Below, one piece after another: positions 908-34,255 of a stretch of DNA of 64,000 bases (the stretch's first letter is position 1; each line of letters opens with the position of its first letter). The position numbers and the translations under genes are program-made. The notes beneath the pieces were generated by a model that was given only the letters and a program-made list of their open reading frames with translations, was not told the origin of the DNA and did not search any database. Source of the stretch: a virus; the UHGV virus genome UHGV-0123226; one strand, given 5' to 3'.

Positions 908-931
908 GACCATACTTTTGACCATACTTTT
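908..931. repeat. tandem direct repeat GACCATACTTTT x2 abutting the integrase stop codon (candidate arm-type Int binding sites, P' arm of attL)
   Basis: gaccatacttttgaccatactttt, identical motif to 707-730 and located 0 bp from the int stop. Confidence 0.6.
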
Positions 932-2157
932 CAAAAATTTAAATAGGCTGCAAATTTATCGGCAGACCTTTCTTTTTGTTTTTTAGTTACATGTGTGTAA
1001 ATATTCATTGTTGTGTGAATATCTGAATGTCCTAGTCTTTCCTGTACTTCTTTAACAGATAAGCCAGCTTCAAATAATAAACTACAATGTGTATGCCGAA
1101 ATCCGTGTATTGTAATGTCGTTAAAATCATATTCTTTACAGATACGAGACAAAACGGTATTTGGTCGGGTTATATCGATGTAGTTATTATTTTTAGAAGA
1201 AAAAATTATTTGTTCCTTTGTTTTAACATGTTGACCATGTATAAGTAAATATCTTTTTTGTTGAGTTTGCCAATCCCTCAAAGTATTAAGCGTTTCATCA
1301 TCCAGTGAAATTTTTCGGTTAGATGTATCTGTTTTAGGGGGCGTGGTGACTAATTTATTATCTGAATTTCTTACGACTGTTTTATTAATCTCAATCGTTT
1401 TATTAAAAAAATCCACATCATCCCAAGTTAAAGCTAAAGCTTCTCCTTTTCGCATTCCAGTAAAAGCTAGAATCCTGAATAAAGGATAAGTTAAAGGAAA
1501 TTTGTCTTTTTGGCAGCATTTAAGAAAATTTTGTAATTCTTCTTTTTCGAAGTACTTTATTTTATCTTTTTTACGTTTTCGATCACCTTTTGAAAAAGTC
1601 ACTTCTTTCATGGGATTATCTTTAATAAGCTTCATCTTTTTCGCATAATCAAAAACTGCAGATGTATAACTCTTTAAAGCTTTGTAGGTAGAATATTGCT
1701 CTTTCCATTTATTAATAGTTTCTTGGCAGTAAGCTATGTTATAGCTTTGGATTTTTTTATTTCCGAAATAAACTGAAATGTTTTTATCAAATAAAAACTT
1801 AACACGTAAATAGGTGCTTTCTCTTACCGTAGGTTTGTATTGTTCCATCCACATATCTTTTACCTGCGCAAAAGTATAACTAGTCTCTTTCAATAACTCT
1901 TTATCTGTAGCTAGAACTTCTAGTCTCGCAAGGGCAATTTTTGCCTCTTTCTGCGTTCGAAAACCTCTCTTAGTTGTATACCTCTTTTTTCCAGTTAATG
2001 GATCAATTCCAAGGTACGTCTTAAAATACCATGCTTTCTCCCCGTTTTTCTTTTGATACTGTTTTATCATTGCCATGTATAAAACCCCTTTCAAAAACTC
2101 ATGTTCGTCTACATTCAAAAAATTATAAGTACCTTTCCATTTCTGGAGGGAGACCAT
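931..2157 (-). CDS. int: tyrosine site-specific integrase
   Basis: 408 aa; C-terminal catalytic motifs (..HGFRHTH.., ..LGHSDIHTTMNIYTHV..) typical of phage tyrosine integrases; N-terminal arm-binding/SAM-like domain. Confidence 0.9.
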   Translation of the reverse strand: MVSLQKWKGTYNFLNVDEHEFLKGVLYMAMIKQYQKKNGEKAWYFKTYLGIDPLTGKKRYTTKRGFRTQKEAKIALARLEVLATDKELLKETSYTFAQVKDMWMEQYKPTVRESTYLRVKFLFDKNISVYFGNKKIQSYNIAYCQETINKWKEQYSTYKALKSYTSAVFDYAKKMKLIKDNPMKEVTFSKGDRKRKKDKIKYFEKEELQNFLKCCQKDKFPLTYPLFRILAFTGMRKGEALALTWDDVDFFNKTIEINKTVVRNSDNKLVTTPPKTDTSNRKISLDDETLNTLRDWQTQQKRYLLIHGQHVKTKEQIIFSSKNNNYIDITRPNTVLSRICKEYDFNDITIHGFRHTHCSLLFEAGLSVKEVQERLGHSDIHTTMNIYTHVTKKQKERSADKFAAYLNF

Positions 2158-4485: not shown

Positions 4486-4681
4486 GGAGAATATTATGGC
4501 TTATACAACTGAACAAGAAAGCTGGATACTCAACCAAATCAAAAAAGAGCGTAAACAGCTACAAGATGATAGAGCAGCGCTTAGACAATCAGAACAACTG
4601 ACCGAAGGAAAAGCATATCAAATTGAAAAAGAACTCGAATTTTTAAGATACTTAGAGATTCAAAATAGAATGCATATTTAA
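4478..4681 (+). CDS. hypothetical coiled-coil protein
   Basis: 67-aa ORF overlapping the upstream stop, RBS present. Confidence 0.4.
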   Translation: MRKENIMAYTTEQESWILNQIKKERKQLQDDRAALRQSEQLTEGKAYQIEKELEFLRYLEIQNRMHI

Positions 4682-4692
4682 GGAGAAATGAA

Positions 4693-4866
4693 ATGAGAAA
4701 AATTTATAACTTAAGAAGAATTGCAGTATTGCTAATCGTATTCGGACTAGGACTGCTAGTAGGCGGAAAGTTTAATCCGATTATCCAAAATGTATATATC
4801 GGCTTATTCATCATTTGGACATTGTTTTATGATCTGGCACTTGAAGATAGAGAGGTAAATAAATGA
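4693..4866 (+). CDS. small membrane protein (57 aa)
   Basis: ATG with RBS aggagaaatgaaATG; two hydrophobic helices (IAVLLIVFGLGLLVGG, IGLFIIWTLFY). Not in the 60-aa or longer ORF track. Confidence 0.35.
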   Translation: MRKIYNLRRIAVLLIVFGLGLLVGGKFNPIIQNVYIGLFIIWTLFYDLALEDREVNK

Positions 4867-5149
4867 CAAGGAAAGAAAAATTACAGCAAACGAAAAAACT
4901 TGCTGATTTATGGTACCAGCAACAAAAAAATAAAATATACATTGCACAACAAAAAGAGCGCAGAGGTGTTGTATGACGACAAAAAAGCGACTTAAGCCGG
5001 CAAGCAATAAGTCGCATACAAAAATATACTAAGAAAATTATATCACAGAAACGAGGTCTTGTGAATGAATCGTAGTGAAGCAGATGCGCTAGATCAATTT
5101 TTAACAGAGCCGTCAGAAGAATTACAGAAAATCGAACCAGAATGGGAAT

Positions 5150-5650
5150 ATGACGAGGAGGAAGATAGCCGTGGCAACACTTTATGAACTTAGCAACGAT
5201 TATTTAAAAGTTTTGTCATTAGCTGAAGAGCTTGATGATGGAACATTAAAAGATACGTTAGATAGTATTAGCGATTCAATCGATTTAAAAGTAGAAAACA
5301 CAGCAAAAGTAGTTAAAGAACTTGAGAGCAACATATCTATTGTTGAAAAAGAAATCAAACGGCTACAGTCACGAAAAACAACGCTTTCTAACAATGTAAA
5401 GAACCTAAAAGGATATCTGCAAGATGAAATGGAAAAGGTCGGCAAAACGAAAATCAAGGGCGAATTATTCAATGTAGGAATTCAAAACAATCCAGTTTCT
5501 GTGAATATTATAGACGAAAAATTAATTCCTATTGGCTTTTTAATTCCTCAACCTCCCAAAGTTGATAAAACAGCTTTGAAAGAAGAACTGAAACATGGGG
5601 AAATCAAAGGTGCAGAATTAGTTCAAACTAAGAGTTTGAGAATTAGATAG
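5150..5650 (+). CDS. Siphovirus Gp157-like protein
   Basis: 166-aa coiled-coil protein directly upstream of a Sak4-type ATPase, the conserved Gp157-Sak4 arrangement. Confidence 0.45.
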   Translation: MTRRKIAVATLYELSNDYLKVLSLAEELDDGTLKDTLDSISDSIDLKVENTAKVVKELESNISIVEKEIKRLQSRKTTLSNNVKNLKGYLQDEMEKVGKTKIKGELFNVGIQNNPVSVNIIDEKLIPIGFLIPQPPKVDKTALKEELKHGEIKGAELVQTKSLRIR

Positions 5651-5661
5651 GAGGTTTCAAT

Positions 5662-6678
5662 ATGGAAATAAAAAAGGCTAAACGCGAAAAAATAAAAGTT
5701 CCTATCATGATAACTGGCGCAAGTGGTAGTGGAAAAACAGTAAGTGCGTTGTTTATTGCTAAAGGAATTATTGAAAAAATGCATTCAGACTTATCAGAAC
5801 AAGAACAATGGGAAAAAATAGGTGTCATTGACACTGAGCACAAACGATCGTTGTTATATGCTGATTCAACCATTGGAAATGTCGACATAGGGGAATTTTT
5901 GCATATTGATTTTGAAGCACCATTTACTGTACAGCGATATATACAGGCTTTTAATTTATTCAAACAAGCTGGGGTTGAAGTGGTTATAGTCGATTCTCTA
6001 ACGCATGCTTGGAGTGGTGAAGGTGGCATTTTAGAACAAGTAGAAAACCATCAGAGAGGCAACTCTAAAAATCAAATGTTGGCTTGGAATAAAGTAAAAC
6101 CATTAGAGAAAGAATTTCTTAAGTTAGTAACAGGAAATTCAATGTATGTGATTGGAACGTCTAGAAGTAAGCAAGCCTACGACATGGAAAAAAATGAACA
6201 AGGTAAAACACAAGTAGTAAAACTAGGGTTGAAACCTGATCAAAAAGATAGTTTGGAATATGAATTTGCTATCGCTTTACGTATTGATCAGGACCACATA
6301 GCGGAAGCTACAAAAGATAACTCAAATATGTTTAATATGCCTTTTAAAATAACAAAAGAAGTAGGCGAAAAAATATATGAATGGAGTAGCGAAGGAATAG
6401 ATTTAGAAAAATTAAAAGATGAATTAATTAGTAGTATTACAGAACTTGCTACACAATCTGAAAATCATGAAAATATGTTTAAAGAGTTGCACAGCAAGAT
6501 TAACAACGTACCTTTAAAAAACGTAAAAACTAAAGTTCTTGAGCGTATGAAAGAAATGTTAGAAAAGATTGAAGTTCCTACTGTGGAACAACAAAGTGAA
6601 AACGAACTCGATGAAGAACAAACAGAATTATTTGACGAGGCAAATCCTCCGATTGCAAATGATTTTGAAAAGAAGTGA
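5662..6678 (+). CDS. Sak4-like (AAA_24) RecA-fold ATPase, ssDNA annealing/recombination
   Basis: Walker A GASGSGKT, Walker B VVIVDSLT; position in the recombination module. Confidence 0.7.
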   Translation: MEIKKAKREKIKVPIMITGASGSGKTVSALFIAKGIIEKMHSDLSEQEQWEKIGVIDTEHKRSLLYADSTIGNVDIGEFLHIDFEAPFTVQRYIQAFNLFKQAGVEVVIVDSLTHAWSGEGGILEQVENHQRGNSKNQMLAWNKVKPLEKEFLKLVTGNSMYVIGTSRSKQAYDMEKNEQGKTQVVKLGLKPDQKDSLEYEFAIALRIDQDHIAEATKDNSNMFNMPFKITKEVGEKIYEWSSEGIDLEKLKDELISSITELATQSENHENMFKELHSKINNVPLKNVKTKVLERMKEMLEKIEVPTVEQQSENELDEEQTELFDEANPPIANDFEKK

Positions 6679-6682
6679 TTGA

Positions 6683-7324
6683 ATGATTGGGAAAATCATA
6701 AAACATAAAGGGAATATGTTGGCCATCGAATTTGAGGATGAAATAAATTCAAATTTTCTCGAACTTCTGGCTAATAACGATGATAATTTAGCGAAAGTTG
6801 AATTCTTAGATAATCGACAGATGTCTCAAAAACAGAATGCACTTTCTCACGTTCTAATAGCCGATGTAGCACGTTGGAGCTATGACGAACCTAAATGGAT
6901 TGAAAGTGTCTTGAAATACTACTACGAGGCTAAGAGTGGTGTTTATTTTGAACATAGTAGAGCTACCAAGAATGAAGCGACTGAGTGGATCGGTTTCTTG
7001 ATTGAGTTCATTTTGAAAAACGATATACCACTGGAAAAAAGATACCAATACTTGCTTGAAAATAACAAATGGTTTTATTACTGCCTGAAATATCGTAAGT
7101 GCTGTATTTGCGGTAAGCATGCTGACGTTTGTCATATCGAAGTTGTCGGAATGGGTCGCAATCGTAAGAAAATCAGCCATGAAAATTTTACTTTTTATGC
7201 AGGTTGCCGTTTCCATCACCAAGAAGAACATCGTATTGGTACTAAGAACTTTTTGAATAAGTATCAAATAAAACCAGTCAAACTAAATATTGAAGAACGC
7301 AAGAAATTAAATATAGGAGGGTAA
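6683..7324 (+). CDS. Cys/His-rich hypothetical protein (HNH-like zinc-finger)
   Basis: CCICGKHADVCH....GCRFHHQEEH cluster; follows Sak4. Confidence 0.4.
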   Translation: MIGKIIKHKGNMLAIEFEDEINSNFLELLANNDDNLAKVEFLDNRQMSQKQNALSHVLIADVARWSYDEPKWIESVLKYYYEAKSGVYFEHSRATKNEATEWIGFLIEFILKNDIPLEKRYQYLLENNKWFYYCLKYRKCCICGKHADVCHIEVVGMGRNRKKISHENFTFYAGCRFHHQEEHRIGTKNFLNKYQIKPVKLNIEERKKLNIGG

Positions 7325-8183: not shown

Positions 8184-8711
8184 ATGATAAACCAAGTTGT
8201 GTTAGTTGGACGTTTAACGAAAGATATAGATTTACGCTACACCGCAAGTGGTTCTGCAGTTGGAAGCTTTACTCTTGCTGTGAACCGTAACTTTACAAAC
8301 CAAAACGGCGAACGAGAAGCGGATTTTATCAACTGTGTAATTTGGCGTAAGCCTGCTGAAACAATGGCTAATTATGCTCGTAAAGGAACATTATTAGGAG
8401 TTGTTGGAAGAATTCAAACTCGTAATTATGACAACCAGCAAGGCCAACGTGTCTATCTGACTGAAGTTGTTTGCGAGAGTTTCCAATTATTGGAATCAAA
8501 AAGCGCCAACGAGAATAGAAATAGCATTCAGACTTCACAGAATAGCGGTACAAGCGTTCAAAACAATTTCGAGAGTAATTATACCACAAATCAAAACAAA
8601 GGCTTAAATCAGCAAAATAACAGCCAACAAATGTCGTTTGGTGGAGATGCGGATCCGTTTGCAGGTGCAGGTAATTCAATCGACATTAGCGATGATGATC
8701 TGCCGTTCTAG
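8184..8711 (+). CDS. ssb: single-stranded DNA-binding protein
   Basis: OB-fold N-terminus ([31 protein letters not shown]), Gln/Asn-rich linker, acidic C-terminal tail DDDLPF. Confidence 0.9.
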
Positions 8712-8723
8712 GAGGTTAAAGAA

Positions 8724-8918
8724 ATGAACAGTGTAATTTTTGAAGATATAGCACGTATTCAAGCTGAAAAAAAGCAAAAGCGAAAAGAAATGCTTAAGTT
8801 AATGAATGAAAACCCAGACTGGTATAAACATCCCAAAAGCATGGTCTATCGTCAAATTAAATTATTTGGTAAGGATATTGGTGAGCAAACAATGGATAAA
8901 TCTAAACCAATCAACTAA
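8724..8918 (+). CDS. hypothetical protein
   Basis: 64-aa ORF with RBS aggaggttaaagaaATG. Confidence 0.4.
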   Translation: MNSVIFEDIARIQAEKKQKRKEMLKLMNENPDWYKHPKSMVYRQIKLFGKDIGEQTMDKSKPIN

Positions 8919-9072
8919 ATTGATAAAGACAAGTTCACCATTCAAGAATATTTGTATTTGCAATGGATTGGTTATTCAGTGAATGCAATCATAGAAGCGT
9001 TAGGAATGCCTAGAAGCAAATTCTGGGAATATAAAGCTGAACATTTAAATTAGATTTATGAAATGAAAGTGA

Positions 9073-12619: not shown

Positions 12620-13404
12620 GGTTTTTTTAGGGATTATTTAGGGTTTTTAACTCGAAATCCGTTGTATTATGGTAGTATCAAAAGTCAAAGAAATGGACAC
12701 AGTACACACTTTCTCGTTTAGTCACCGTTCACTTTGTCTTTCGATGGTCACTTGCAGACTTACGTTCTCAATAAAATGAAGTGAGGTGAATAACCTCCTC
12801 TTTTTTCTACAGGTTTGCAAGGGACACAAATAGTTGCTAGGGATGCAGTAGTAACTACCTGATTCATACTAGTCGAGGTTAGGTATATTGCTCTATCCCA
12901 TCATATGACGATAAGAACATTAACCAGATCTCTGCGGCAGCTGCTTACGCACGAGAGCAATTCCTAAACTCATAGAGTAGCAGCTAGGTACGTTTAGGAT
13001 AAACTTAATCAATTGTTTTTGCTGGTGTTTGATTGATTGGTCACTGTGGTGGAATATAGACCTTACAAGGTGCAAATCCTTGCCAGTGACATAATCATTT
13101 TAGCCGTGAAAGTCTGCGAAAGCTACATCCTGAAGGGAAAACATTCTGACGAGAGTGTGTAAAGGTTAATTTGATTTATTAGCAATTGCTAGAAGGTCGC
13201 TCCTTCTGGTTTGGCGTGTAGCATTGTGGTAATGCAACTGATTACGTGTGAGATAAGATGCGGGTTCGAATCCTGTCACGCCAATAGGTAGCATAGCTAC
13301 TTAAATAAATTAGGAAACGTCAATAGATGTTTCTATCCTTCACGAGAGGCATCCACTTGCTGGGTGTCTCTTTTTATACATAAAATTACATAGGAGGTGA
13401 GGTC
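12620..13404 (+). other. 785-bp GC-enriched non-coding region between arpU and terS (candidate structured RNA and/or cos region)
   Basis: No ORF of 60 aa or longer on either strand; GC visibly higher than the flanks; contains TTAGGGTTTTT x2 (12617-12650) and a tRNA-like 3' half (13212-13284). Confidence 0.4.
13212..13284 (+). ncRNA. tRNA-like element (acceptor stem, D-arm and T-arm present; no canonical anticodon stem)
   Basis: tggcgtg...cacgcca acceptor pairing; D-arm gcat-tgtggta-atgc; T-arm gcggg-TTCGAAT-cctgt. I could not fold the middle 23 nt into an anticodon stem. Confidence 0.3.
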
Positions 13405-14178
13405 ATGGCAAAGTACACAGAGTGGCTGACTGACGAAGGGTTAATTAAAATCGAAGGGTGGGCGCGAGATGGCCTCATCGATAAGCAGATAGCCCAAAAT
13501 ATCGGGGTAGCTTATTCAACTTTCAGAGAATGGGTAAAAAAATTTCCAGCACTTTCGGCATCCTTAAAAAGAGGAAAAGAAGTTGTTGATAGACAAGTTG
13601 AAAATGCTTTGTTTAAAAGTGCTATAGGATACGAATACACTGAAATTACTAAAGAAAGAATGGCAGATAACGGGCAAAAGAAACGACATAATGGTGAATC
13701 ATCTTTGACAGAAGAAGAGTGGGAAACAGCACTTGCTTATTTTAATTACAGTTGTGCATATTGTGGTAATTCAGATGAGATGACTAAAGACCATCTTGAC
13801 CCATTAAAAAATGGCGGCGAGTTGACTTTTTCAAATGTAGTTCCTGCATGTCGTTCTTGTAATTCAAGCAAAAAGGATCATCAATGGCTTTCGTGGTATC
13901 AAAACCAAGACTTTTACGACAGATACAAAGCAAATAAAATCACTGATTATATATCATTCGTGTTAAGCTTTCCGAAAAAAGAAGAAAACACAGAGCTAGT
14001 TGTTACAAAAGAAATAACTAAATTGGTAGCCCCTAATCCAACTGCGGCTATTTTCTGGTTAAAAAACAGAAAACCAGACAAATGGAGAGATCGAAGAGAA
14101 ACCGAGGTTTCAGGATTGCTTAATATTTCCGATGCAGCAGTCGAAATCGAGCAATTTTTCGAGGATGATTCTACATGA
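13405..14178 (+). CDS. terS: terminase small subunit with an in-frame inserted HNH endonuclease domain
   Basis: N-terminal TerS HTH (IAQNIGVAYSTFREWVKK...ALSASLKRGKE...ENALFKSAIGYEYTE) and C-terminal TerS signature (VVTKEITKLVAPNPTAAIFWLKNRKPDKWRD), separated by about 105 aa of HNH (CAYCG...HLDPL...N....C..CN..K). Confidence 0.7.
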   Translation: MAKYTEWLTDEGLIKIEGWARDGLIDKQIAQNIGVAYSTFREWVKKFPALSASLKRGKEVVDRQVENALFKSAIGYEYTEITKERMADNGQKKRHNGESSLTEEEWETALAYFNYSCAYCGNSDEMTKDHLDPLKNGGELTFSNVVPACRSCNSSKKDHQWLSWYQNQDFYDRYKANKITDYISFVLSFPKKEENTELVVTKEITKLVAPNPTAAIFWLKNRKPDKWRDRRETEVSGLLNISDAAVEIEQFFEDDST

Positions 14179-18723: not shown

Positions 18724-19383
18724 ATGGAAGGAGAAAGTCAAATGAAAACATGTAATTTATTACCAATGCAATTACAATTTTTTGCTGCAGATAATGGAAA
18801 TGGTTCAGGTGGAGGAGATAATCATCAGCAACAAAATGAAGACGAACAAAAATCATTGAATCTCGATGAACTAGATGAAGAACAGCTGACTTCAATTAAA
18901 GAAAAGTTCGGATTAAAAGACGATAAAGATGTTGATGAGATTATCAAAAGTAAAAAATCACGTTGGCAAAAAGATTTAGAAGAACAAAAGAATGAAGCCG
19001 CTCGTTTAGCGAAACTTTCAGAAAAAGAGCGACAACAAGCTATTCTTGATAAAGAAAAAGAAGAGTTTGAAAAACAAAAGGCTGAGTTCCAAAAACAGCA
19101 ACTGTTCGTTGAAAAAGGAAATCAGTTAAAATCAGAAGGTATGCCTTCTGATTTTGCCCATAGAATTACCGGAGAAACAGCTGAAGAAATTCTAGAAGAT
19201 GTAAAGGCATTTCGTGATGAATGGGATAAAGCTGTAGAAGCAAAGGTGAACGAGCGCCTTGCTAGCAAAAATAAGACACGAGTAGGCAATAATGGTGGTC
19301 AAATGACTAAAGCAGAAATTATGCAAATTAAAGACTCTAAAGAGCGTCAAAGAATGATTGCTCAAAATAGAGATTTATTCTAG
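18724..19383 (+). CDS. scaffolding protein
   Basis: 219 aa, highly charged coiled-coil, directly upstream of the major capsid gene; N-terminal L27-like MQLQFFAADNG motif. Confidence 0.7.
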   Translation: MEGESQMKTCNLLPMQLQFFAADNGNGSGGGDNHQQQNEDEQKSLNLDELDEEQLTSIKEKFGLKDDKDVDEIIKSKKSRWQKDLEEQKNEAARLAKLSEKERQQAILDKEKEEFEKQKAEFQKQQLFVEKGNQLKSEGMPSDFAHRITGETAEEILEDVKAFRDEWDKAVEAKVNERLASKNKTRVGNNGGQMTKAEIMQIKDSKERQRMIAQNRDLF

Positions 19384-19395
19384 GAGGAATAACTT

Positions 19396-20373
19396 ATGAA
19401 AAATATGTCAAAAACTAATAAAGAACGTTTATTAAAAATGGATTTGCAACTATTCGCGGCAGAACCAGACCTTACAAAAATGGATGATTTAGGGGAAATT
19501 AAATCAATTGATTTTGTGAATCGTTTTGAGAAAGGCATCAAAGAATTATTAGAGTTATTAGGTGTAACACGGTTAGAACCTTTATCTAAAGATATGAAAA
19601 TTCAAATGTACAAATGGACAACGTCATTAAAAGATGGAAATGTTGCGGAAGGCGATGATATTCCTTTATCCAAAGTAACTCGAGCTAAAGGAAAATCATT
19701 TACAGTAACATTTAATAAATGGCGCCGTGCAGTAACTGCTGAAGCAATTGCTCGTCATGGAGCATCTATTGCGATTGATCAATCTGACGAAAAATTATTG
19801 CGCCAAATTCAAGGTGGAATTAAAACGCAATTTGTTAATTTTTTAGGGACAGCTCCTACTAAAATTCCAGCTGAAGGGTTACAAAAAGCGTTAGCACAAT
19901 CATGGGGGAAACTAAGTACATTCGAAGAGTTTGATGGTGCTCAATTTGTTTCCTTTGTAAATCCTATGGATGTAGCAACCTACTTAGGGGATACAAAAGT
20001 CTTAGCAGATGCATCTAATGTATTTGGTATGACCTTATTGAAAAACTTTCTAGGTGCAACAAACGTTATTGTATTAAACGCAATTCCAGAAGGAAAGGTT
20101 TATTCTACCGCCGTTGACAATATCGTATTAGCATACTTGGATATGAAGGCATCAGATTTAGGTGATATTTTTGTGGACTTCGTTGATGAAACTGGTTTTA
20201 TTTCAGCGACTCGTGGACGTACTCTACGAAATGCAACATTTGAATCATTGTTTATGAATGCTTTAACATTATTCCCTGAAATTCCAGAAGGTGTAGTAGA
20301 AGCAACAATTAGTGGTGAAACAACAACGACAACGACAAAACCAACAACAACGACTACTACGACACAAGGGTAA
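19396..20373 (+). CDS. major capsid protein with a C-terminal Thr-rich tail
   Basis: 325 aa after the scaffold; N-terminal MDLQLFAAEPD motif; C-terminus TTTTTTKPTTTTTTTQG. Confidence 0.75.
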   Translation: MKNMSKTNKERLLKMDLQLFAAEPDLTKMDDLGEIKSIDFVNRFEKGIKELLELLGVTRLEPLSKDMKIQMYKWTTSLKDGNVAEGDDIPLSKVTRAKGKSFTVTFNKWRRAVTAEAIARHGASIAIDQSDEKLLRQIQGGIKTQFVNFLGTAPTKIPAEGLQKALAQSWGKLSTFEEFDGAQFVSFVNPMDVATYLGDTKVLADASNVFGMTLLKNFLGATNVIVLNAIPEGKVYSTAVDNIVLAYLDMKASDLGDIFVDFVDETGFISATRGRTLRNATFESLFMNALTLFPEIPEGVVEATISGETTTTTTKPTTTTTTTQG

Positions 20374-20387
20374 AGTAGGTTTCTAAT

Positions 20388-20771
20388 ATGGAAAATATAG
20401 AAAATGAATATGGTAATCGTCTGAAGGAAATCAAAGTTTTGTTAGGCATTTCTGACGAGCTCCAAGATGAATTGTTAACGTTAGTGATTCAAGACAGTGA
20501 AGAACGTATTTTATCTGTCTTGAATCAATATGCTCAAAAAAATGGAACAGATAAGTACGATGCTGTACCTGATAGTTTGAACTATATATTGAGAGATGTA
20601 TCAATTAAACGTTTCAACAAAAGAAATAGTGAAGGGACAAGTTCTGACAGCGAAGAAGGTCGTTCTTTTACTTGGGAAAAGAGTTATTTGGATGAATATT
20701 TGAACATTTTAGACGAGTATACCAAGCCTGAAATTAGAGCTGGTAAAGGAATTGCGAGGTTTTTACCATGA
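20388..20771 (+). CDS. head-tail connector (gp6/gp15-like)
   Basis: 127 aa, position after the major capsid gene. Confidence 0.55.
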   Translation: MENIENEYGNRLKEIKVLLGISDELQDELLTLVIQDSEERILSVLNQYAQKNGTDKYDAVPDSLNYILRDVSIKRFNKRNSEGTSSDSEEGRSFTWEKSYLDEYLNILDEYTKPEIRAGKGIARFLP

Positions 20772-21046
20772 TTTATAACCATCGTTGTAAAATAGTCAAG
20801 AATATTACTACTGAAGGGTATTTAGGAGAAGAAGCCATTTCAAAAGAAGTTAGAACAGTACCTTGTAGTATCCATAATATTTCTTTTGATGAACAAATAT
20901 CTTTCTTTGGAAAATACAATAAGAACGCACTTAAAGTTCATTTACAGGGATATTTCTTCTTTGATGAAATTAATATAGACGGTATTTCTAAAAATATTTT
21001 TGATGTTAAGTTTCATCGCAATTCAACAGTTGTGATATTAACATGA
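20768..21046 (+). CDS. head-tail adaptor / head closure protein
   Basis: 92 aa, overlapping start and stop codons in the morphogenesis operon. Confidence 0.5.
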   Translation: MIYNHRCKIVKNITTEGYLGEEAISKEVRTVPCSIHNISFDEQISFFGKYNKNALKVHLQGYFFFDEINIDGISKNIFDVKFHRNSTVVILT

Positions 21047-21390
21047 GCAAAGTTATTCAAATTGTTGGACTGAAGGCATTTGTTCGGGGTGTTAAGAAGC
21101 AAACAGAAAAAACAGAACAGTCTATTCATAAAGAGCTACAAAAATCAGGATTTAGAGTTGAGAAAAGGGCTAAACAATTAGCACCGGTAGATACTGGATG
21201 GTTAAGAAGCAATATATATTCATATATGATGAGCAGAATGTGTGTAAGTATAGACTCGCCTGCTAACTATTCAATTTTCATCGAAGAAGGAACACGTTTC
21301 ATGGCTGCTCAACCTTTCTTGTATCCTGCTGTAAAAGAAGAATATCCAACATTAATGAAGAATTTACAAAAGATAGTTGGAGGTAAATGA
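21043..21390 (+). CDS. HK97 gp10-like tail-component protein
   Basis: 115 aa; position. Confidence 0.5.
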   Translation: MSKVIQIVGLKAFVRGVKKQTEKTEQSIHKELQKSGFRVEKRAKQLAPVDTGWLRSNIYSYMMSRMCVSIDSPANYSIFIEEGTRFMAAQPFLYPAVKEEYPTLMKNLQKIVGGK

Positions 21391-21748
21391 AGTGGAACAT
21401 GCCCCAAATACTAAATTTTTAAAAGAGATTTCTGAAAAATTAAATAAAACGGGAATCCCTATTTACTATAAACTTCCAGGGCCAGAAATTATTGAGCCTT
21501 TTTATGTTATTGGCAATCACTTTGACGATGATACAAAAAGTGCAAAATTTGGTGCTGCAATAGTGAACACTGATTTACAAATAGATTTATTTTATCCAGT
21601 AAATAGTAGAGCAAAAGTCGAAGATGTAATATATCAAACCAAATCTGCTCTACGTACAAAGAAAATTAGTACAAATATTAGACCTGATAACACTATTGGC
21701 AGAGAAGTTTATCATGTCGTATTTAAAATATCTGATTATATTTTTTAG
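21377..21748 (+). CDS. tail completion / tail terminator protein
   Basis: 123 aa; directly precedes the major tail protein. Confidence 0.5.
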   Translation: MEVNEVEHAPNTKFLKEISEKLNKTGIPIYYKLPGPEIIEPFYVIGNHFDDDTKSAKFGAAIVNTDLQIDLFYPVNSRAKVEDVIYQTKSALRTKKISTNIRPDNTIGREVYHVVFKISDYIF

Positions 21749-21759
21749 GAGGAATTCAT

Positions 21760-22389
21760 ATGCCAGAAACAGTAAATAACGGAATTAAAAAATTCCAAGG
21801 AACACCTATTAGAGGAAACCGTGTTTGGTACTTTATTCAAAGCACACAAGTACCAATTGGATCTCCAGCTCTCTTGCCTGCGTTTCAAACAGATGGTACT
21901 ACAACTATCGGCGGTGACAACATCGATGAACAAACAAAAATGGGGCGTATCATTTTAAAGTCAACTGATGAACATAGTATTGAATTGACACAATACTTTG
22001 CTCCCGATGATGAATCAATTGATGTTATTGAAGAAGCCAAAAAGAATGGACATTCTGTTAAAGTATGGCGAGTTGTTGTTGACGATACTCTTGCAACAGA
22101 AGAAGGCGCCGGAACTAAAGCTTATCCAGCTAAATTTGGTTATGGTATCCCTGACGAATTAGAATATGCTGAAGGAGAAGATTTAGTTGAAATTAGCTAC
22201 ACACTAAATATTGTAGGGAAATTGCAAGACGGAACATTTCCTTTATCAGACGAAGACGTTGCAATGGTCGAAAGTTTGTATCAATTCCAACGCCCAGGAG
22301 AAACTACTGGTGATTATAGCAATATTGATAATGGAACAACAACCACCACTACAAGACCTACAACAACCACAACGACAACTCAAGGGTAA
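21760..22389 (+). CDS. major tail (tube) protein with a C-terminal Thr-rich tail
   Basis: 209 aa at the canonical position upstream of chaperone/TMP; C-terminus TTTTTRPTTTTTTTQG, near-identical to the capsid tail. Confidence 0.7.
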   Translation: MPETVNNGIKKFQGTPIRGNRVWYFIQSTQVPIGSPALLPAFQTDGTTTIGGDNIDEQTKMGRIILKSTDEHSIELTQYFAPDDESIDVIEEAKKNGHSVKVWRVVVDDTLATEEGAGTKAYPAKFGYGIPDELEYAEGEDLVEISYTLNIVGKLQDGTFPLSDEDVAMVESLYQFQRPGETTGDYSNIDNGTTTTTTRPTTTTTTTQG

Positions 22390-22394
22390 TTAAA

Positions 22395-23303
22395 ATGAAA
22401 TACCTATTATGTCAGCCTGCGATTCAAAGATTTAAATGGGAATTAGAAGTGTGTCTTACTAACTTAAAAAAAGTAGGAATTGAAGACATCGTATTGCTCT
22501 TTTCGAAACATGATCCATCAATTCCTGTGTATTTTAAAGAAGAGTATGGTGTAACAGTGCATACTTATGAGGATAATCGAAGGGATAAAAGCTATATCCC
22601 TTCGATTAAACCTTATTTGTGGTGGCAATATTTAAAAGAAGACCCTAGTAGGGAAAAAGAAACATACTTCTATATGGACTCAGATGTGATTTTTAGAGAA
22701 CTGATTAATTTCAACAAGTTTAATTTGAAAGAGGATGTTTGGTACTGTTCAGATTGTAATGGCTACTTAAATATTGATTATATACGTAGCTGCAAAAATG
22801 GAGACAAAATATTGCAGGAGATGTCCGGTATAGTTGGTGTCAATCTTGAATCACTTGAAACAATTAATAGTAATTCAGGTGGGGCTCAATGGGTTATAAC
22901 CAATCCGAAAAAAGAATATTGGGAAAAGGTTTATTGTGATTCAATACGTTTATTCAAGTATTTAAATTACCAAGACAGTAATATTCAAATTTGGACTGCG
23001 GAAATGTGGGCTCAATTATGGAATATGTTAGTTTTTAACATAGGCCCGAAAATCGATGAAGAATTAAATTTTTGCTGGCCAACTGATCCAGTCAATAAAT
23101 GGTACGAAACAAAAATATTACACAATGCAGGTGTAACTGAAAAAGATAAAGATTTATTTTTTAAAGGAAAATATGTTAATACTAGTCCTTTTGAAGATAG
23201 GTTAGATAATATGGCTAAAGATAAAGCAACTATAAAATATATAGAAGCTATAAAAATGGCTAAAACAGGAGGAAATAATATATGTCATTTGCAGTTAAAT
23301 TAA
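22395..23303 (+). CDS. putative GT-A fold glycosyltransferase (DxD motif) inserted between the tail tube and chaperone genes
   Basis: 302 aa; YFYMDSDVIF DxD motif about 100 aa from the N-terminus after a hydrophobic beta-strand (IEDIVLLF). Non-canonical moron position; co-occurs with Thr-rich tails on capsid and tail tube proteins. Confidence 0.45.
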   Translation: MKYLLCQPAIQRFKWELEVCLTNLKKVGIEDIVLLFSKHDPSIPVYFKEEYGVTVHTYEDNRRDKSYIPSIKPYLWWQYLKEDPSREKETYFYMDSDVIFRELINFNKFNLKEDVWYCSDCNGYLNIDYIRSCKNGDKILQEMSGIVGVNLESLETINSNSGGAQWVITNPKKEYWEKVYCDSIRLFKYLNYQDSNIQIWTAEMWAQLWNMLVFNIGPKIDEELNFCWPTDPVNKWYETKILHNAGVTEKDKDLFFKGKYVNTSPFEDRLDNMAKDKATIKYIEAIKMAKTGGNNICHLQLN

Positions 23304-23758
23304 AAGAGAAACAATTAGAAATTAAGTTTAATTATGGAATGTTATTTAAAGCTAATAAAAAGCTAGGTACAAAAGATGCTCAAGGTAACTCACAAAATGA
23401 TGGCGCAGGTGTTCTTTTTGTAAAAGTTCTAGAAGAAGATGATGATGCGCTTTTTGATATTATCAAGCTGGCTTCAAAAGATAAAGTAACAGATGAAGAC
23501 ATTGCGAAGTCTGTTCAGGATTTTGTGGAAACTTTTGAAGATGAAGAAGAAGGATACAGCATGGTATTTGAAACACTTAAACAAGAAATGTTGGATTCTG
23601 GTTTTTTCGTGAAGAAATTGAAGAAATATATCAACAATCTAGAGAAAGCAGCAGATTACTTGAAGAGCCAACAACCGACCGAAGAGATTCAAAATCCAGA
23701 GCAACAAGCAAAAGCGGTCAAAGATTTAGCAGATCGAATCAAGAAAGAAATCTCATAG
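23282..23758 (+). CDS. tail assembly chaperone (gpG-like)
   Basis: 158 aa, acidic, immediately upstream of the TMP. Confidence 0.65.
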   Translation: MSFAVKLKEKQLEIKFNYGMLFKANKKLGTKDAQGNSQNDGAGVLFVKVLEEDDDALFDIIKLASKDKVTDEDIAKSVQDFVETFEDEEEGYSMVFETLKQEMLDSGFFVKKLKKYINNLEKAADYLKSQQPTEEIQNPEQQAKAVKDLADRIKKEIS

Positions 23759-24072
23759 TGAATTGTGCTAGGCAAGGATTAGTGGATATTCCATTAATTA
23801 TGTCTTGTTATAAGTGGGAGTTAGAAGCGATTTTAGAAGGATTAGCTTTGAAAAGTGTAGATGAACAAGAACAAAAAGCCCATTATGCGTTTACTTTAAG
23901 ATATGTTTTGAATGCAAAGAAGCCAAAAATAAAAAAAGTATTTGATAAAGAAAAAATTGAACGCAAAATAAAATCTATTTTTGCTACGACAAACGAAAAG
24001 GAAGAAACATACAATCGTGTGGAAAAGGCAAAAGAAGTGATGAACTATTTCAAAAATAAAAAGTGGAGGTGA
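23758..24072 (+). CDS. tail assembly chaperone frameshift extension (gpGT-like T part, -1 frame)
   Basis: ORF in the -1 frame relative to the G ORF, ending just before the TMP start; canonical G/GT programmed frameshift arrangement. Confidence 0.5.
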   Translation: MNCARQGLVDIPLIMSCYKWELEAILEGLALKSVDEQEQKAHYAFTLRYVLNAKKPKIKKVFDKEKIERKIKSIFATTNEKEETYNRVEKAKEVMNYFKNKKWR

Positions 24073-24076
24073 GTAA

Positions 24077-27000
24077 ATGGCTTTTGAAGGTGCTATTAAC
24101 GCTGTTATCGGTGCTGATTTGTCGCAATATAATGCTGCAATGAATAAAGTTTCATCTATAGCGAATAAAACTATGAATGATGTTGCTAACATATTACAAA
24201 GCGGATCTATGAGTACTACTCAAAAAGTCGGTCAAATTATGAGTAAGTTAGCTGATCCGATGCTAAATAGCGTTTCTAAAGTTTTACCACAAACTGTTGC
24301 ATTATTTGAAAAAGCTGGCGGCGGTATTCAACGTGTAATTGCTGGAATCGGTGAAAAAATACCACAACCAATTAAAAAAGGGATGTCTGCTGCCAAGAAT
24401 GCGGTTGTAAGTTCAGCTAAAGAAATGGGAGCTGGACTATCACAACAAACATCAATAATTGGTAAAGCATTTTCGACAGTTGCTTCTAAAATACCACAGC
24501 CTTTTAAAAGTGCATTTAAAGCTGTTGGATCAAGTGCTAGTGAAATAAGTTCAAAAATTACTACTTTAGGAACTAATATAGGTTCGAAGTTAACTAGTGC
24601 GTTTAATAGCGCTGGGTCAAAAGCGTCTAACGCACTAAATAAGATGGTTTCAGGAACCAATAAAGCAGGATCAGCAACAGATGATTTAGTAAAAAAAATC
24701 ATAGGTATTGGTGCAGCATACGCGGTAGCTCAAAAAGGTATATCAGCACTCTCTGGTGGATTTAAAGAAATTATAGGTGACTTGAACCAAGGCTCAGCTA
24801 CATGGAAAACTTTCAATGCTAATATGGAAAATATTGGTAAAGGAAAAGATGAAATAGCATCTGTAAAAAAAGAGCTACAAGACTTTGCCACTAAAACAAT
24901 TTATTCTGCTTCTGAAATGGCTACTACATATAGTCAATTAGCAGCTGTAGGAATAAAAAATACTGACAAATTGGTTATGGGGTTTGGTGGATTAGCTGCG
25001 GCAGCTGAAAATCCGACACAAGCGATGACAACGCTAAGCCAACAAGCTACACAAATGGCTGCAAAACCGATGGTTCAATGGCAAGATTTTAAATTGATGT
25101 TAGAACAAACTCCTGCAGGTATTGCAGCTGTTGCTAAAACTATGGGTATGTCAACCTCTGAAATGGTGACTGCGGTTCAAGATGGAAAAATTGCTACTCA
25201 AGATTTCTTTGATGCAATAACTAAAACTGGTACAAATGAAACGTTTTCAAAAATGGCTACCGAATATAAAACTGTCGGTCAAGCAATGGATGGCTTAAAG
25301 GAAACAATCACCAATAAATTACAGCCTGCTTTTGATCAGCTATCTCAAGTAGGGATAGAAGCAGTCAGCAAATTAACAGATAAAATTGGTGATTTTAATA
25401 TGGATAAAATATCTGCAGCAGTAGATGTTGCTACAAATGTTTTAAGCCATTTTATCAATGGTACTGATTTGTCTAAAAAAAGTATTGATGCTTTAAAAGG
25501 TGCTATCCAAGGACTATTACCTATAGCTGCAGTACTGGGAAGCGCGTTAGTAGTCAGTAAAGCAGCTCCTGCAATTGCATCTCTTTCAAGCGGATTTTCA
25601 GCATTTTCAGGAGTATTAGGAGGTATGGTAAGCGGACCGTTCAAAATGTTTAGTTCTGGATTAACAGGTTTGATAGGTTTAATTCCTAAAATAGGAAGTA
25701 GCTTATCCATGGCAAGTTCTGTTGGGATGGGAGCCTTAGGTGGCATGACTTCTGCAATGGGAACTATCATGCAAGTGGCTTTATCAGCTATAGGACCTGC
25801 AGCTATATTAGGGTTAGTTATAGCTGGATTGGGATTAATAAATAATCAATTTGGAGCACAAATTGACCAATTATTAAACACAGTAACTACAAAAGGACCA
25901 GAAATTATCACTAATCTTGTTAATGGTATTACCTCACAATTGCCACAACTTATGCAAAGTGGCACTGAATTAATTGCTAAACTAGCTAGTGCTATATCTA
26001 CAATGATTCCAATAATCATAGATTCAGGTATGAAAATTATTGGAAGTCTTGTACAAGGTGTGGGGCAAAATGCACCGTCTCTTATAAATTCAGCGTTAGA
26101 AGTTATTACTTCATTTTTGAGCTCCATAGCAAGTGCATTGCCTGAATTATTAAAAATGGGAATGGAACTTTTGCTGAATATAGTTAAAGGAATCATTCAA
26201 AATATACCAAAAATAGTTGAATCAGTGAAAAAAATCTTGGATTCGTTTGTTAATTCTGTAATGGAAAATCTACCTCAAATTATAGATACGGGTATTCAGA
26301 TTCTTCAGAATTTAATTGATGGTCTTACTCAATTATTGCCACAAATTTTACCTGTCGCATTAAACGCGATTCTAACATTAATCCAAGGTTTAATGGATAA
26401 TATACCTAAGCTTTTAGATGGAGCAGTCCAAATTATAAATTCATTATGTAATTTTATTGTAGAAAACTTACCTATGATTCTAGACGCAGCAATGCAAATT
26501 ATTATGGCCTTGGTTAATGGTATTGTTGAGAATTTGCCAAACATCGTTTCTTCGGGAATACAAATCATTATGACGTTGATTGGCACGGTAATCCAGATGC
26601 TACCACAAATTATTGCTGCTGGGTGGGATATTATTAAAGCTCTTGCTGGTGCTATTTTAGAGGCTATTCCTAATGTTTTAAAAGGAGCTTGGGATGGTAT
26701 TAAAAATGGGTTTTCAAATTTATGGAACACAATAACGGGTAAGTCATCTGAAACAAGCTCAAAAGTATCAAATGATGCTACTACTACTGCTACAAATTTG
26801 AGTTCATCTTATGGACAAGCAAGTTCAAATGTTGCTAATTCAATGAACAACATGAATTTAAATGTAGGTAATTTGAGTACACAAGCCTCAAACAATGCAA
26901 TTAATGCTTCTAATGCAGCTAAAGATGGTACGTCTTCAAACTATAATCTACTAGCTACAAATGTATCAGGAACGATGAATAACCTTAATAGTGTAGTAAG

Positions 27001-27991
27001 TTCAAATTCAACTAAAGCAGCAAATGCTGCAACAAAAGAGTCTAATAGTGCACTAAATGGTGTCTCTAGTGACTATAATAGTATTTTATCTAATGTTAAT
27101 CAGGCTACCTCTGGTACTGCGAATGCTGTTGGCACTAATATGAATCAAGCTACCCAACAAGCTTCTAGTGCCTCTAACCAAATGTTTCAAAATGTATCAA
27201 ATAATACACAAAATATTAATAATAAATCTTCGCAAGACATTTCACAGATGTCAAACAATGTAACGAAGTCCATGAACTCAATGAAGTCAAATGTGACAGG
27301 TACAATGAATAGTGTTGTTAGTACTATTAACGGGGGATTCAGTAGGATAAATTCTGCAAATACTCAAGCATTCAATTCAATGGCAAATAATGTTCAAAAT
27401 GGTATGAATAGAATGAATAGTGCCGTTATGAATAGCATGAATTCAATGACAAGCATAATGATTTCTTCCACGAGTCGAATAAACTCCATTTTTAGTGGAT
27501 TGACTTCAACGCTTTCTAATATCGGTTATAATGCAGGTATAGGTTTGAGAAATGGTTTAGCAAATTCTGCGGGTTCTATTTACGCAACTGCTAGTAATAT
27601 AGCTAGTAACGTAGCCCGTACTATGAGGAAAGCACTGGATATTCATTCGCCATCACGTGTTACCGATAAAATTGGGGGATTTGTTGGGATGGGTTTAGTT
27701 AACGGCATGTCAAGAATGCAAAAGCAAGTTGATAGACAAGCGTTAGCATATGCAACATCAATAAAATCACAAGAATATGAAGCAAATTCTGTTTTAACGG
27801 CGGATACTAGAAATGTCTCTAATAAGCTTTCTTCATCTATGAATGAATTAAGCGAAGAAGTTAAAACTAGTCAATTACAAGAACCAGTATTTGAAGTTCA
27901 TACCGAACTTGTTGGAGATAAAATATACACAATTGTTAAACAAAAAGAAGCAAGAAATCAAAATAAAGTTAATTTGGTTAACAAGAAATAG
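24077..27991 (+). CDS. tail tape measure protein
   Basis: 1304 aa; N-terminal TMP domain, long alpha-helical/Ala-Gly-rich TM-like middle, Asn/Ser-rich low-complexity C-terminal region. Confidence 0.9.
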   Translation: MAFEGAINAVIGADLSQYNAAMNKVSSIANKTMNDVANILQSGSMSTTQKVGQIMSKLADPMLNSVSKVLPQTVALFEKAGGGIQRVIAGIGEKIPQPIKKGMSAAKNAVVSSAKEMGAGLSQQTSIIGKAFSTVASKIPQPFKSAFKAVGSSASEISSKITTLGTNIGSKLTSAFNSAGSKASNALNKMVSGTNKAGSATDDLVKKIIGIGAAYAVAQKGISALSGGFKEIIGDLNQGSATWKTFNANMENIGKGKDEIASVKKELQDFATKTIYSASEMATTYSQLAAVGIKNTDKLVMGFGGLAAAAENPTQAMTTLSQQATQMAAKPMVQWQDFKLMLEQTPAGIAAVAKTMGMSTSEMVTAVQDGKIATQDFFDAITKTGTNETFSKMATEYKTVGQAMDGLKETITNKLQPAFDQLSQVGIEAVSKLTDKIGDFNMDKISAAVDVATNVLSHFINGTDLSKKSIDALKGAIQGLLPIAAVLGSALVVSKAAPAIASLSSGFSAFSGVLGGMVSGPFKMFSSGLTGLIGLIPKIGSSLSMASSVGMGALGGMTSAMGTIMQVALSAIGPAAILGLVIAGLGLINNQFGAQIDQLLNTVTTKGPEIITNLVNGITSQLPQLMQSGTELIAKLASAISTMIPIIIDSGMKIIGSLVQGVGQNAPSLINSALEVITSFLSSIASALPELLKMGMELLLNIVKGIIQNIPKIVESVKKILDSFVNSVMENLPQIIDTGIQILQNLIDGLTQLLPQILPVALNAILTLIQGLMDNIPKLLDGAVQIINSLCNFIVENLPMILDAAMQIIMALVNGIVENLPNIVSSGIQIIMTLIGTVIQMLPQIIAAGWDIIKALAGAILEAIPNVLKGAWDGIKNGFSNLWNTITGKSSETSSKVSNDATTTATNLSSSYGQASSNVANSMNNMNLNVGNLSTQASNNAINASNAAKDGTSSNYNLLATNVSGTMNNLNSVVSSNSTKAANAATKESNSALNGVSSDYNSILSNVNQATSGTANAVGTNMNQATQQASSASNQMFQNVSNNTQNINNKSSQDISQMSNNVTKSMNSMKSNVTGTMNSVVSTINGGFSRINSANTQAFNSMANNVQNGMNRMNSAVMNSMNSMTSIMISSTSRINSIFSGLTSTLSNIGYNAGIGLRNGLANSAGSIYATASNIASNVARTMRKALDIHSPSRVTDKIGGFVGMGLVNGMSRMQKQVDRQALAYATSIKSQEYEANSVLTADTRNVSNKLSSSMNELSEEVKTSQLQEPVFEVHTELVGDKIYTIVKQKEARNQNKVNLVNKK

Positions 27992-32953: not shown

Positions 32954-34255
32954 ATGAAAAAGAAAATTTTAGTAGGAGCGCTTGTCGCTCTATTTTTTAT
33001 GCCTTTAAATGTATTAGCTGCAAGAGGCGATCAAGGTGTGGATTGGGCGATTTATCAAGGTGAACAAGGTCGCTTTGGCTATGCACATGATAAATTTACT
33101 ATCGCTCAAATTGGCGGCTACAATGCTAGCGGTATTTATGAACAATACACATATAAAACGCAAGTGGCAAGTGCTATTGCCCAAGGTAAACGTGCGCATA
33201 CCTATATTTGGTATGACACTTGGGGAAACATGGACATTGCGAAAACAACAATGGATTACTTTTTGCCACGTATTCAAACGCCTAAAAATTCCATCGTTGC
33301 ATTAGATTTTGAACATGGAGCGTTGGCTAGTGTTCCAGATGGATATGGAGGATATGTAAGTTCAGATGCCGAAAAAGCAGCAAATACAGAGACAATTTTG
33401 TACGGTATGCGCAGAATCAAACAGGCTGGCTATACTCCAATGTATTACAGCTATAAGCCATTTACACTAAATCATGTAAACTATCAACAAATCATCAAAG
33501 AGTTTCCTAACTCTTTATGGATTGCTGCGTATCCTATTGATGGTGTGTCACCAAATCCATTGTATGCTTATTTCCCAAGCATGGATGGTATTGGCATTTG
33601 GCAATTCACATCCGCTTATATTGCAGGTGGTTTAGATGGTAACGTAGATTTAACAGGAATTACGGATAGTGGTTATACAGATACAAATAAACCAGAAACG
33701 GATACGCCAGCAACAGATGCAGGCGAAGAAATTGAAAAAATACCTAATTCTGATGTTAAAGTTGGCGATACCGTCAAAGTGAAATTTAGTGTTGATGCTT
33801 GGGCAACTGGCGAAGCTATTCCAGATTGGGTTAAAGGAAACAGTTATAAAGTGCAAGAAGCAACTGGAAGCAGAGTATTGCTAGAAGGCATTTTGTCATG
33901 GATTAGCAAAGGTGATATTGAACTATTACCAGATGCAACAGTTGTCCCTGATAAGCAACCAGAAACAACACATATAGTTCAACATGGCGAAACATTATCA
34001 AGCATTGCTTACCAATACGGTACCGATTATCAAACTTTAGCTTCGTTAAATGGATTGGCTAATCCAAACCTTATTTACCCTGGACAAGTTTTGAAAGTAA
34101 ATGGATCAGCAACAAGTAATGTTTACACAGTCCAGTTGGGTGATAATTTATCAAGTATAGCGGCTAAACTTGGCACGACTTATCAAACATTGGCAGCTTT
34201 AAACGAATTAGCAAATCCTAACTTGATTTATCCGGGTCAAACGTTGAACTATTAA
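32954..34255 (+). CDS. endolysin: signal peptide, GH25 muramidase and two C-terminal LysM repeats
   Basis: N-terminal signal peptide ([22 protein letters not shown]); GH25-like GVDWAIYQG; two LysM repeats ([43 protein letters not shown] and [43 protein letters not shown]). Confidence 0.8.

Follow-up and report, generated by a model that had tools for sequence, protein, structure and literature searches.

Reports of phage virion glycosylation in the searchable literature are confined to mycobacteriophages and other actinobacteriophages, whose modified virions are recognised less well by antibodies. The mycobacteriophages Che8, Corndog and Myrna encode their own glycosyltransferases, which modify the capsid and the tail tube, and antibody binding is reduced (Freeman et al. 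2023, as relayed in PMC12363180 and PMC12691614). Here we analysed a window of 64,000 nucleotides from the virus genome UHGV-0123226 (the term denotes this whole stretch of DNA) and describe, in its region 19396-23303, a putative counterpart from a phage of Firmicutes. The major capsid protein and the major tail (tube) protein encoded there end in matching polythreonine (poly-Thr) tags, and a 302-residue protein encoded right after the tube gene is predicted to be a glycosyltransferase. We consider it probable that this enzyme glycosylates the poly-Thr tags.

The likeness to the mycobacteriophage system lies in a phage-encoded enzyme and in the marking of both capsid and tube; glycosylation was demonstrated there, whereas here we infer it from the co-occurrence of tag and enzyme. 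The hosts are Firmicutes here and Actinobacteria in the described system. Che8 carries a three-gene cassette at the right end of its genome, far from the structural genes, whereas the window has a single gene beside its presumed substrates. The products of that cassette, gp108-110, match GT2, GT25 and methyltransferase families of Pfam, and the window enzyme matches none of these; Methyltransf_24, which is fused to a GT2 domain in Che8 gp108, is also fused to some members of the enzyme's own family, PHROG 4417. Profile alignment with hhalign against Che8 gp108, gp109 and gp110 gave probabilities of 0.04-0.5%, and sequence homology with the known phage glycosylation system, which we had considered, is unsupported by the alignments to these three Che8 enzymes. 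The original prediction had spoken of an equivalent system, which is apt in the sense of analogy and not of homology, as the enzyme has no detectable sequence similarity to those of Che8. It had also described Ser/Thr/Pro/Ala-rich extensions as the acceptors in mycobacteriophages, which we could not confirm: the Che8 capsid and tail proteins end in ...NKTGS and ...YSDGS, with no poly-Thr tag.

Two further systems invite comparison. Glycosylation of serine-rich-repeat adhesins by GtfA/B and GlyE is similar in that long runs of hydroxy amino acids are O-glycosylated in the cytoplasm by soluble transferases, including a glycosyltransferase family 8 (GT8) enzyme that is the top structural match of the window protein. 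Its acceptors are huge Ser-rich adhesins secreted via accessory Sec, whereas here they would be short (~6-18 Thr) C-terminal tags of virion proteins, and the window's structural module contains no accessory Sec or GtfA/B genes. Capsid glycosylation in giant viruses (A64R of chlorovirus PBCV-1) concerns eukaryotic viruses and differs in capsid fold and linkages, with no poly-Thr tag. The searchable literature, which leaves subscription journals outside and possibly an older biochemical note with them, describes neither glycosylated virions nor poly-Thr tags for phages of Firmicutes; within this scope, the suggestion that such a system would be new in a low-GC Firmicutes siphophage stands. Ten phages, including a Bacillus cereus phage, were glycostained in one study and none was positive; whether these phages carry the enzyme gene is not established.

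Threonine tags and the neighbouring enzyme gene

The capsid protein (19396-20373) ends in ...GETTTTTTKPTTTTTTTQG and the tube protein (21760-22389) in ...GTTTTTTRPTTTTTTTQG; their coordinates and both Thr-rich C-termini had been described exactly in the original prediction. The tags proper, TTTTTTKPTTTTTTTQG on the capsid (20320-20370, + strand) and TTTTTTRPTTTTTTTQG on the tube (22336-22386, + strand), contain 13 Thr each and are the proposed O-glycosylation acceptors. Their four Thr runs are the sole runs of five or more Thr in the six frames of the window, and at the local Thr frequency of 6.6% the chance expectation for runs of six or more is ~0.01. Besides one K/R change, nine of the 16 codons for the same residue differ synonymously between the two tags. 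The peptide was thus conserved while the DNA drifted, so that the tags represent neither a DNA repeat, as had been recognised from the start, nor a recent duplication; the tag peptide is under selection. The capsid fold stops at ...GVVEATI (residue 306), where the core of all capsid homologs ends. The poly-Thr tag that follows is missing from most of these homologs and seen only alongside the transferase gene, and the AlphaFold2 (AF2) model gives it low confidence and no secondary structure.

The residues that end the tags after the Thr run vary by phage (QG, SA, GA, SHA, HHD, EAQ and others). The last two residues are identical between the capsid and tube tags of one phage in 23 of 37 non-redundant pairs, compared with a mean of 3.7 and a maximum of 10 in 5000 shuffling trials. 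This match within phages is compatible with the enzyme recognising the tag end as well as with the tag having been copied repeatedly inside the genome. We also considered whether the conserved CAAGGGTAA that closes both tags could bind ribosomes for the gene downstream, and dropped the idea because tags of other phages end in SA, GA, SHA or HHD.

The gene for the 302-residue protein (22395-23303, + strand) starts 5 nucleotides past the tube stop codon. Its position right after the tube gene had been read correctly; the accompanying idea that it takes the place of a tail assembly chaperone was mistaken, as the chaperone G gene follows directly (23282-23758, + strand; PF12363 E 3e-10; PHROG 183). 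The enzyme gene is therefore an insertion between the tube and chaperone genes. The protein matches PHROG 4417, a family of unknown function, at E 4.2e-146, with residues 1-290 aligned to profile positions 1-292 of 293. An exhaustive profile search at 50% identity recovered 867 family clusters, of which 743 score E<=1e-10, and the family forms a closed group with few weak outliers. The only database names found for homologs are 'hypothetical protein', 'phage protein' and 'prophage pi2 protein 34'. The window protein has no Pfam match at E<=0.1 and no match in NCBIfam. PF01501 was matched at E<=10 by none of the 39 members checked, and the glycosyltransferase models of Pfam, at the same threshold, gave nothing except one chance-level GT2 match. 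A profile search of Protein Data Bank (PDB) sequences returned a kinetochore protein as its sole match (E 0.24), which we rejected as chance level.

The predicted structure is more informative than these searches. The AF2 model of the enzyme has a predicted local distance difference test (pLDDT) score of 94 and consists of a single Rossmann-like alpha/beta/alpha nucleotide-binding domain, the topology of the GT-A glycosyltransferase fold. All top Foldseek matches in the PDB are retaining GT-A transferases (E 5e-9 to 1e-6). The nearest three-dimensional similarity is to GT8 members with GlyE as the best structural match, and the identity to GT8-type retaining GT-A transferases (LgtC, glycogenin, GlyE and Skp1 alpha-galactosyltransferase, with the related GT24 enzyme UGGT) is 9-13%. 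A fold search of BFVD found only uncharacterised relatives of the enzyme family, plus GT8 and GT6 viral proteins. The GT-A-like character that had been suspected from the DxD motif is thus borne out by a confident GT-A fold in which the DxD is invariant. This motif, D95-S96-D97 (YFYMDSDVIF; codons 22677-22685, + strand), follows the hydrophobic strand 90-93, and both D95 and D97 are invariant across 39 homologs and in distant members.

A second motif lies after strand 241-243, where H243-N-A-G246 ... F255-x-K257 is invariant. Its first part (codons 23121-23132, + strand; H243, A245 and G246 invariant) resembles the HxxG metal-ligand motif of GT8, and H243 may be the counterpart of the GT8 metal-ligand His. 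The C-terminal motif of GT8 enzymes is HxxGxxKPW; the HNAG...FFKGKY of this family is spaced differently from that compact form. GGAQ (163-165), W-T-A-E-M-W (200-205) and K257 are also invariant among the 39 homologs, and the DxD, GGAQ, W[TC]AEMW, HNAG and K..Y motifs are kept even in the most distant members found (E 1e-50). Hydrophobic segments are absent from the protein, whose Kyte-Doolittle value, taken over stretches of 19 residues, peaks at 1.15. From its structure the enzyme is best named GT8-like, as it falls outside PF01501 by sequence, and it may represent an unclassified glycosyltransferase family.

Many of the listed family members measure 500-780 residues, and in four of ten long members scanned the extra region matched Pfam (Glycos_transf_2, Glyco_transf_7C, Methyltransf_24, and radical SAM with SPASM). 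Fusions to glycosyltransferase domains and to a sugar-type methyltransferase provide independent evidence for a role of the family in glycan assembly. The fusion proteins are P0285, P0289, P0296 and P0371; among them, radical SAM/SPASM is not a partner that one would expect of a glycosyltransferase.

Coupling of tag and enzyme across phages

We assembled 53 loci that were found via the enzyme alone, using contigs at one genome per species. Nearly every complete locus encodes one to three same-strand structural open reading frames (ORFs) ending in poly-Thr. The genera represented are Enterococcus, Lacticaseibacillus, Lactiplantibacillus, Lactococcus, Listeria, Clostridium and Trichococcus, and the set further includes many Bacillaceae and one metagenome-assembled genome (MAG) of Saccharimonadales. 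As a control, we retrieved 80 viral contigs solely by capsid homology, 79 of them with a scorable capsid ORF. The enzyme gene occurs in all six contigs with a poly-Thr capsid tail (E ~1e-160) versus none of the 73 without; these untailed capsids end in a short A/P/G/E tail, and most of their contigs extend 10 kb downstream. We also scored the ORFs of both strands for five or more consecutive Thr among the 25 C-terminal residues. At least one such ORF was present in 53 of the 58 loci with the gene, and at least two in 42 of them, versus 0 of the 74 loci lacking it. Thr-rich C-termini of capsid and tail proteins in other phages thus accompany the gene near-perfectly, as the original prediction would have it.

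Close relatives of the window phage narrow the comparison. In L060, L067 and L074, capsids are 81-87% and tubes 82-86% identical to those of the window, and both tags and the gene are missing. Their capsids end in ...EATITTEPVTPPDSGGE or similar, the tube protein of L060 ends in ...GDYDDIKTEAPTP, the chaperone gene directly follows the tube gene, and poly-Thr endings occur in none. This comparison indicates that the two tags and the enzyme gene were gained or lost as a trio. Across loci, poly-Thr ends the gene immediately upstream of the enzyme in 48 of 54 cases (29 tube-sized, 15 capsid-sized and 4 small), and the enzyme gene is found in two positions, following either the capsid or the tube gene. 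The tagged carriers belong to at least five capsid families (PHROG 544, 10, 840, 3270/7080, which are protease-capsid fusions, and 909) and at least four tail-protein families (PHROG 238, 88, 117 and 14018).

Two small proteins are also tagged. In many Bacillaceae prophages a PHROG 749 protein of ~105 residues and unknown function, encoded next after the capsid gene, ends in poly-Thr (L025:3872-4207, with equivalents in L015-L038 and L052); its tag ends (e.g., SEG, GGG, EAV) differ from the endings that capsid and tube have in common in the respective phage. In prophages of Lentibacillus, Oceanobacillus and Pseudogracilibacillus (L001-L004, ~5630-6001), the gene before the enzyme encodes a 113-122-residue protein with three or four poly-Thr blocks, which looks like the C-terminal portion of a major tail protein and may be a frameshift extension of the tube protein.

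The reverse test sampled 120 viral contigs for a DNA pattern coding for eight Thr alone. A family member was present in six of them, and in all six a poly-Thr ORF immediately adjoins the enzyme; in three, a protein of 1659-2067 residues contains the poly-Thr as an internal linker close to its C-terminus. Distant relatives of the enzyme (E 1e-56 to 1e-63) immediately follow these giant, linker-bearing proteins (L225:996-5975, L237:3114-8114 and L190:2390-8593, minus-strand positions). From this arrangement, fibre-like proteins may be further substrates of the enzyme family.

Among isolated phages, tblastn located the enzyme in 77 GenBank phage records, in all of which it is unannotated. In Lactococcus phage 1706 the protease-capsid fusion (ORF10) ends in ...KTTTTTTTTTHHD (also written ...TTTTTTTTTHHD), the tail protein (ORF13) ends in ...VTTTTTTTTTTHHD (also written ...TTTTTTTTTTHHD), and the enzyme is ORF14. 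The Herelleviridae myovirus Bacchae encodes three small poly-Thr-rich proteins around the enzyme gene, including one in which (TTTTTSTTTVKP) is repeated several times, and the tail protein of Staphylococcus phage SA2 ends in ...DDSTTTTTTTTP. Strictly lytic phages, namely Herelleviridae, Sextaecvirus, VPE25 and 1706, carry the enzyme, and these examples show that the system is confined neither to temperate phages nor to siphoviruses. In Staphylococcus phage VB-SauS-SA2 (L260:8117-8930), an overlapping ORF in another frame (8667-8930) carries a long poly-Thr/Ser stretch, which may reflect a programmed frameshift giving a longer tagged tube or a sequencing error in a repetitive region; the assembly protease/scaffold protein of the same phage (3874-4983) contains an internal poly-Thr block.

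Proposed mechanism and alternative explanations

What the computation shows is the tags themselves, the fold of the enzyme with its conserved motifs, and how tightly tag and enzyme are coupled in evolution. In the mechanism we propose, the 302-residue protein would be a soluble, phage-encoded GT8-like transferase, probably retaining and metal-dependent, that is expressed from the late structural operon. The donor would probably be a uridine diphosphate (UDP)-hexose of the host; GT8 enzymes usually use UDP-Glc or UDP-Gal. The enzyme would O-glycosylate threonines in the disordered C-terminal tags of capsid and tube subunits while these are still in the cytoplasm, either ahead of assembly or in its course, and retaining chemistry would yield alpha-linked sugars. 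If the head is T=7 (~415 subunits) and the tail, whose length the 1304-residue tape measure sets, has a tube of a few hundred subunits, then with ~13 sites on each subunit a virion could carry, as a rough estimate, several thousand sugars, presumably forming a mucin-like hydrophilic brush on head and tail. The capsid tag is likely exposed, as it follows the last strand of the fold and is modelled without structure; C-terminal extensions of siphophage tube proteins, as in lambda gpV and SPP1 gp17.1*, decorate the exterior of the tube. Candidate benefits include shielding from antibodies, as in mycobacteriophages, and from proteases, colloidal stability with less aggregation, mucin-like adherence to mucus, and less unproductive sticking, e.g., to wall debris.

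Several observations weigh against this mechanism. The enzyme lacks sequence similarity to curated glycosyltransferase families, which leaves its assignment to the predicted fold and motifs, and its best structural match, GlyE, extends an existing glycan instead of initiating on peptide. The AF2 model of the capsid is poor (pLDDT 62) and too weak for placing the C-terminus on the capsid surface. Enzyme-bearing loci with a weak tag or none occur (L018 and L051), the exceptions among the enzyme-found loci being short contigs, L018 with its degenerate ...APQTTPATTAG, and one archaeal MAG. Some phages are tagged on one protein only, such as Enterococcus phage VPE25 on its tail protein (...TTTDTTTTTTTTTTAGK), and one phage, L144, has poly-Thr C-termini with no enzyme-family member within 13 kb. 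Finally, related loci are not phylogenetically independent.

The alternative that fares best keeps the glycan and changes its origin: a host enzyme would prime the threonines, and the phage enzyme would only extend the glycan instead of being the initiating transferase. GlyE behaves just so on serine-rich-repeat adhesins. However, the family spans phages of many host genera, which makes a common host primer of cytoplasmic phage proteins less parsimonious, and glycogenin is an example of a retaining GT-A enzyme that modifies protein side chains directly; we therefore regard host priming as plausible but unlikely. Somewhat less likely still is that the tags receive not a simple sugar but, for example, a nucleotide or a sugar-phosphate. 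GT-A-like folds do include phosphotransferases and nucleotidyltransferases; in the structural comparison, sugar-nucleotidyl transferases and phosphotransferases score just ~9-10.

The enzyme might instead modify a polymer of the host envelope, either enterococcal polysaccharide antigen or teichoic acid, and so serve to exclude superinfection or to bring about lysogenic conversion, with the Thr tails as unrelated hydrophilic spacers. Prophage GT-A enzymes are known to modify Gram-positive wall polymers, TarP being an example, and the link between enzyme and tails in our data rests on co-occurrence. We nonetheless judge this explanation very improbable: the gene is part of the late structural operon, with the tube gene before it and the chaperone gene after it, and not of a lysogeny or accessory region, it occurs in strictly lytic phages, and the enzyme has no membrane segment. 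Nor would this explanation account for the co-occurrence (6/6 versus 0/73), for the adjacency in 48/54 loci or for the loss of tags and gene together in close relatives. Least credible of all is hitch-hiking of an inactive glycosyltransferase-like relic in one mobile structural module, for although many loci are related prophages and shared ancestry inflates the counts, this explanation is already largely refuted by the non-homologous capsid and tail families and two different positions in which the gene is found, by catalytic-type motifs that are invariant across the 867 clusters, and by close relatives that differ only in the trio of two tags and gene. A role in DNA modification was rejected as well, given that the annotation of the 38-kb phiFL1A genome lists no genes for hypermodified-base synthesis and that the link to the tags would be left unexplained.

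Glycosylation of the tags by the phage enzyme thus remains the explanation we prefer. With somewhat less confidence, we favour the wider view of a self-contained, portable 'glyco-tag' system of one GT8-like enzyme and a short poly-Thr tag, which would have originated independently of the mycobacteriophage system and would coat whole virions with O-linked sugars. On this wider view, non-homologous proteins of the capsid, the tube, the connector region and the fibres seem to have acquired the tag time and again, in hundreds of Firmicutes phage lineages.

If true, sugar-coated virions would be a recurrent phage strategy rather than an actinobacterial oddity, with a second system that apparently evolved independently. 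The pair of tag and enzyme is widespread in phages that infect Enterococcus, Lactococcus, Lactobacillus, Listeria, Staphylococcus, Clostridium and Bacillaceae, and many dairy, gut and therapeutic phages (those like VPE25, 1706, phiFL and Staphylococcus 6ec, as well as Lactobacillus myoviruses) would be glycoprotein particles. This would matter for phage therapy through the immunogenicity and clearance of Enterococcus and Staphylococcus phages, and would touch gut phage ecology, through mucin-like surfaces, and dairy phage biology. PHROG 4417, so far an 'unknown' family, gains a testable function, and the natural relatives without tags and gene, together with the simple logic of tag plus enzyme, make the hypothesis directly testable. 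The tag-enzyme pair is also a possible minimal cytoplasmic O-glycosylation tag for engineering.

Operon context and further observations

Region 19396-23303 is set in the late operon of an Enterococcus faecalis prophage, with 98.7% identity to Enterococcus phage 1_EfsPF36 and ~92% to phiFL1A/B/C and phiFL2A/B. The integrase gene (931-2157, minus strand) and the endolysin gene (32954-34255) lie on either side. The scaffold gene (18724-19383) is located just before that of the major capsid protein (325 residues, + strand; PHROG 544 major head protein, E 6e-70), whose homologs carry the database name 'phage capsid protein'. Four head-tail genes separate it from the gene of the tube protein (209 residues, + strand), which belongs to the TP901-1 family (PF06199 E 3e-9; PHROG 238 E 3e-55; TIGR02126 E 1e-33). 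Downstream of the enzyme and chaperone G genes follow the T part of the chaperone (23758-24072, + strand; G/T matching PHROG 183 and PHROG 2567) and, directly after it, the tape measure gene (24077-27991; 1304 residues).

The L144 phage (IMG/VR contig 3300034152_000419) has an unrelated siphophage structural module (4640-7255, minus strand) with at least three ORFs ending in 12-17 Thr: a connector-like protein of 194 residues, a 63-residue ORF and a 186-residue protein encoded just before the chaperone that precedes the tape measure. Poly-Thr tags may pair with other transferases elsewhere.

A tRNA-Arg gene (anticodon ACG; 13211-13285, + strand) lies within the prophage, just 5' of the small terminase gene (13405-14178). 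The motif M-x-LQ-[LF]-FAA-[ED] occurs ~15 residues from the annotated start in both the scaffold (MQLQFFAADNG) and the capsid ORF (MDLQLFAAEPD), which suggests either that translation of both really begins further downstream or that this common N-terminal motif serves in processing or assembly of the two proteins.

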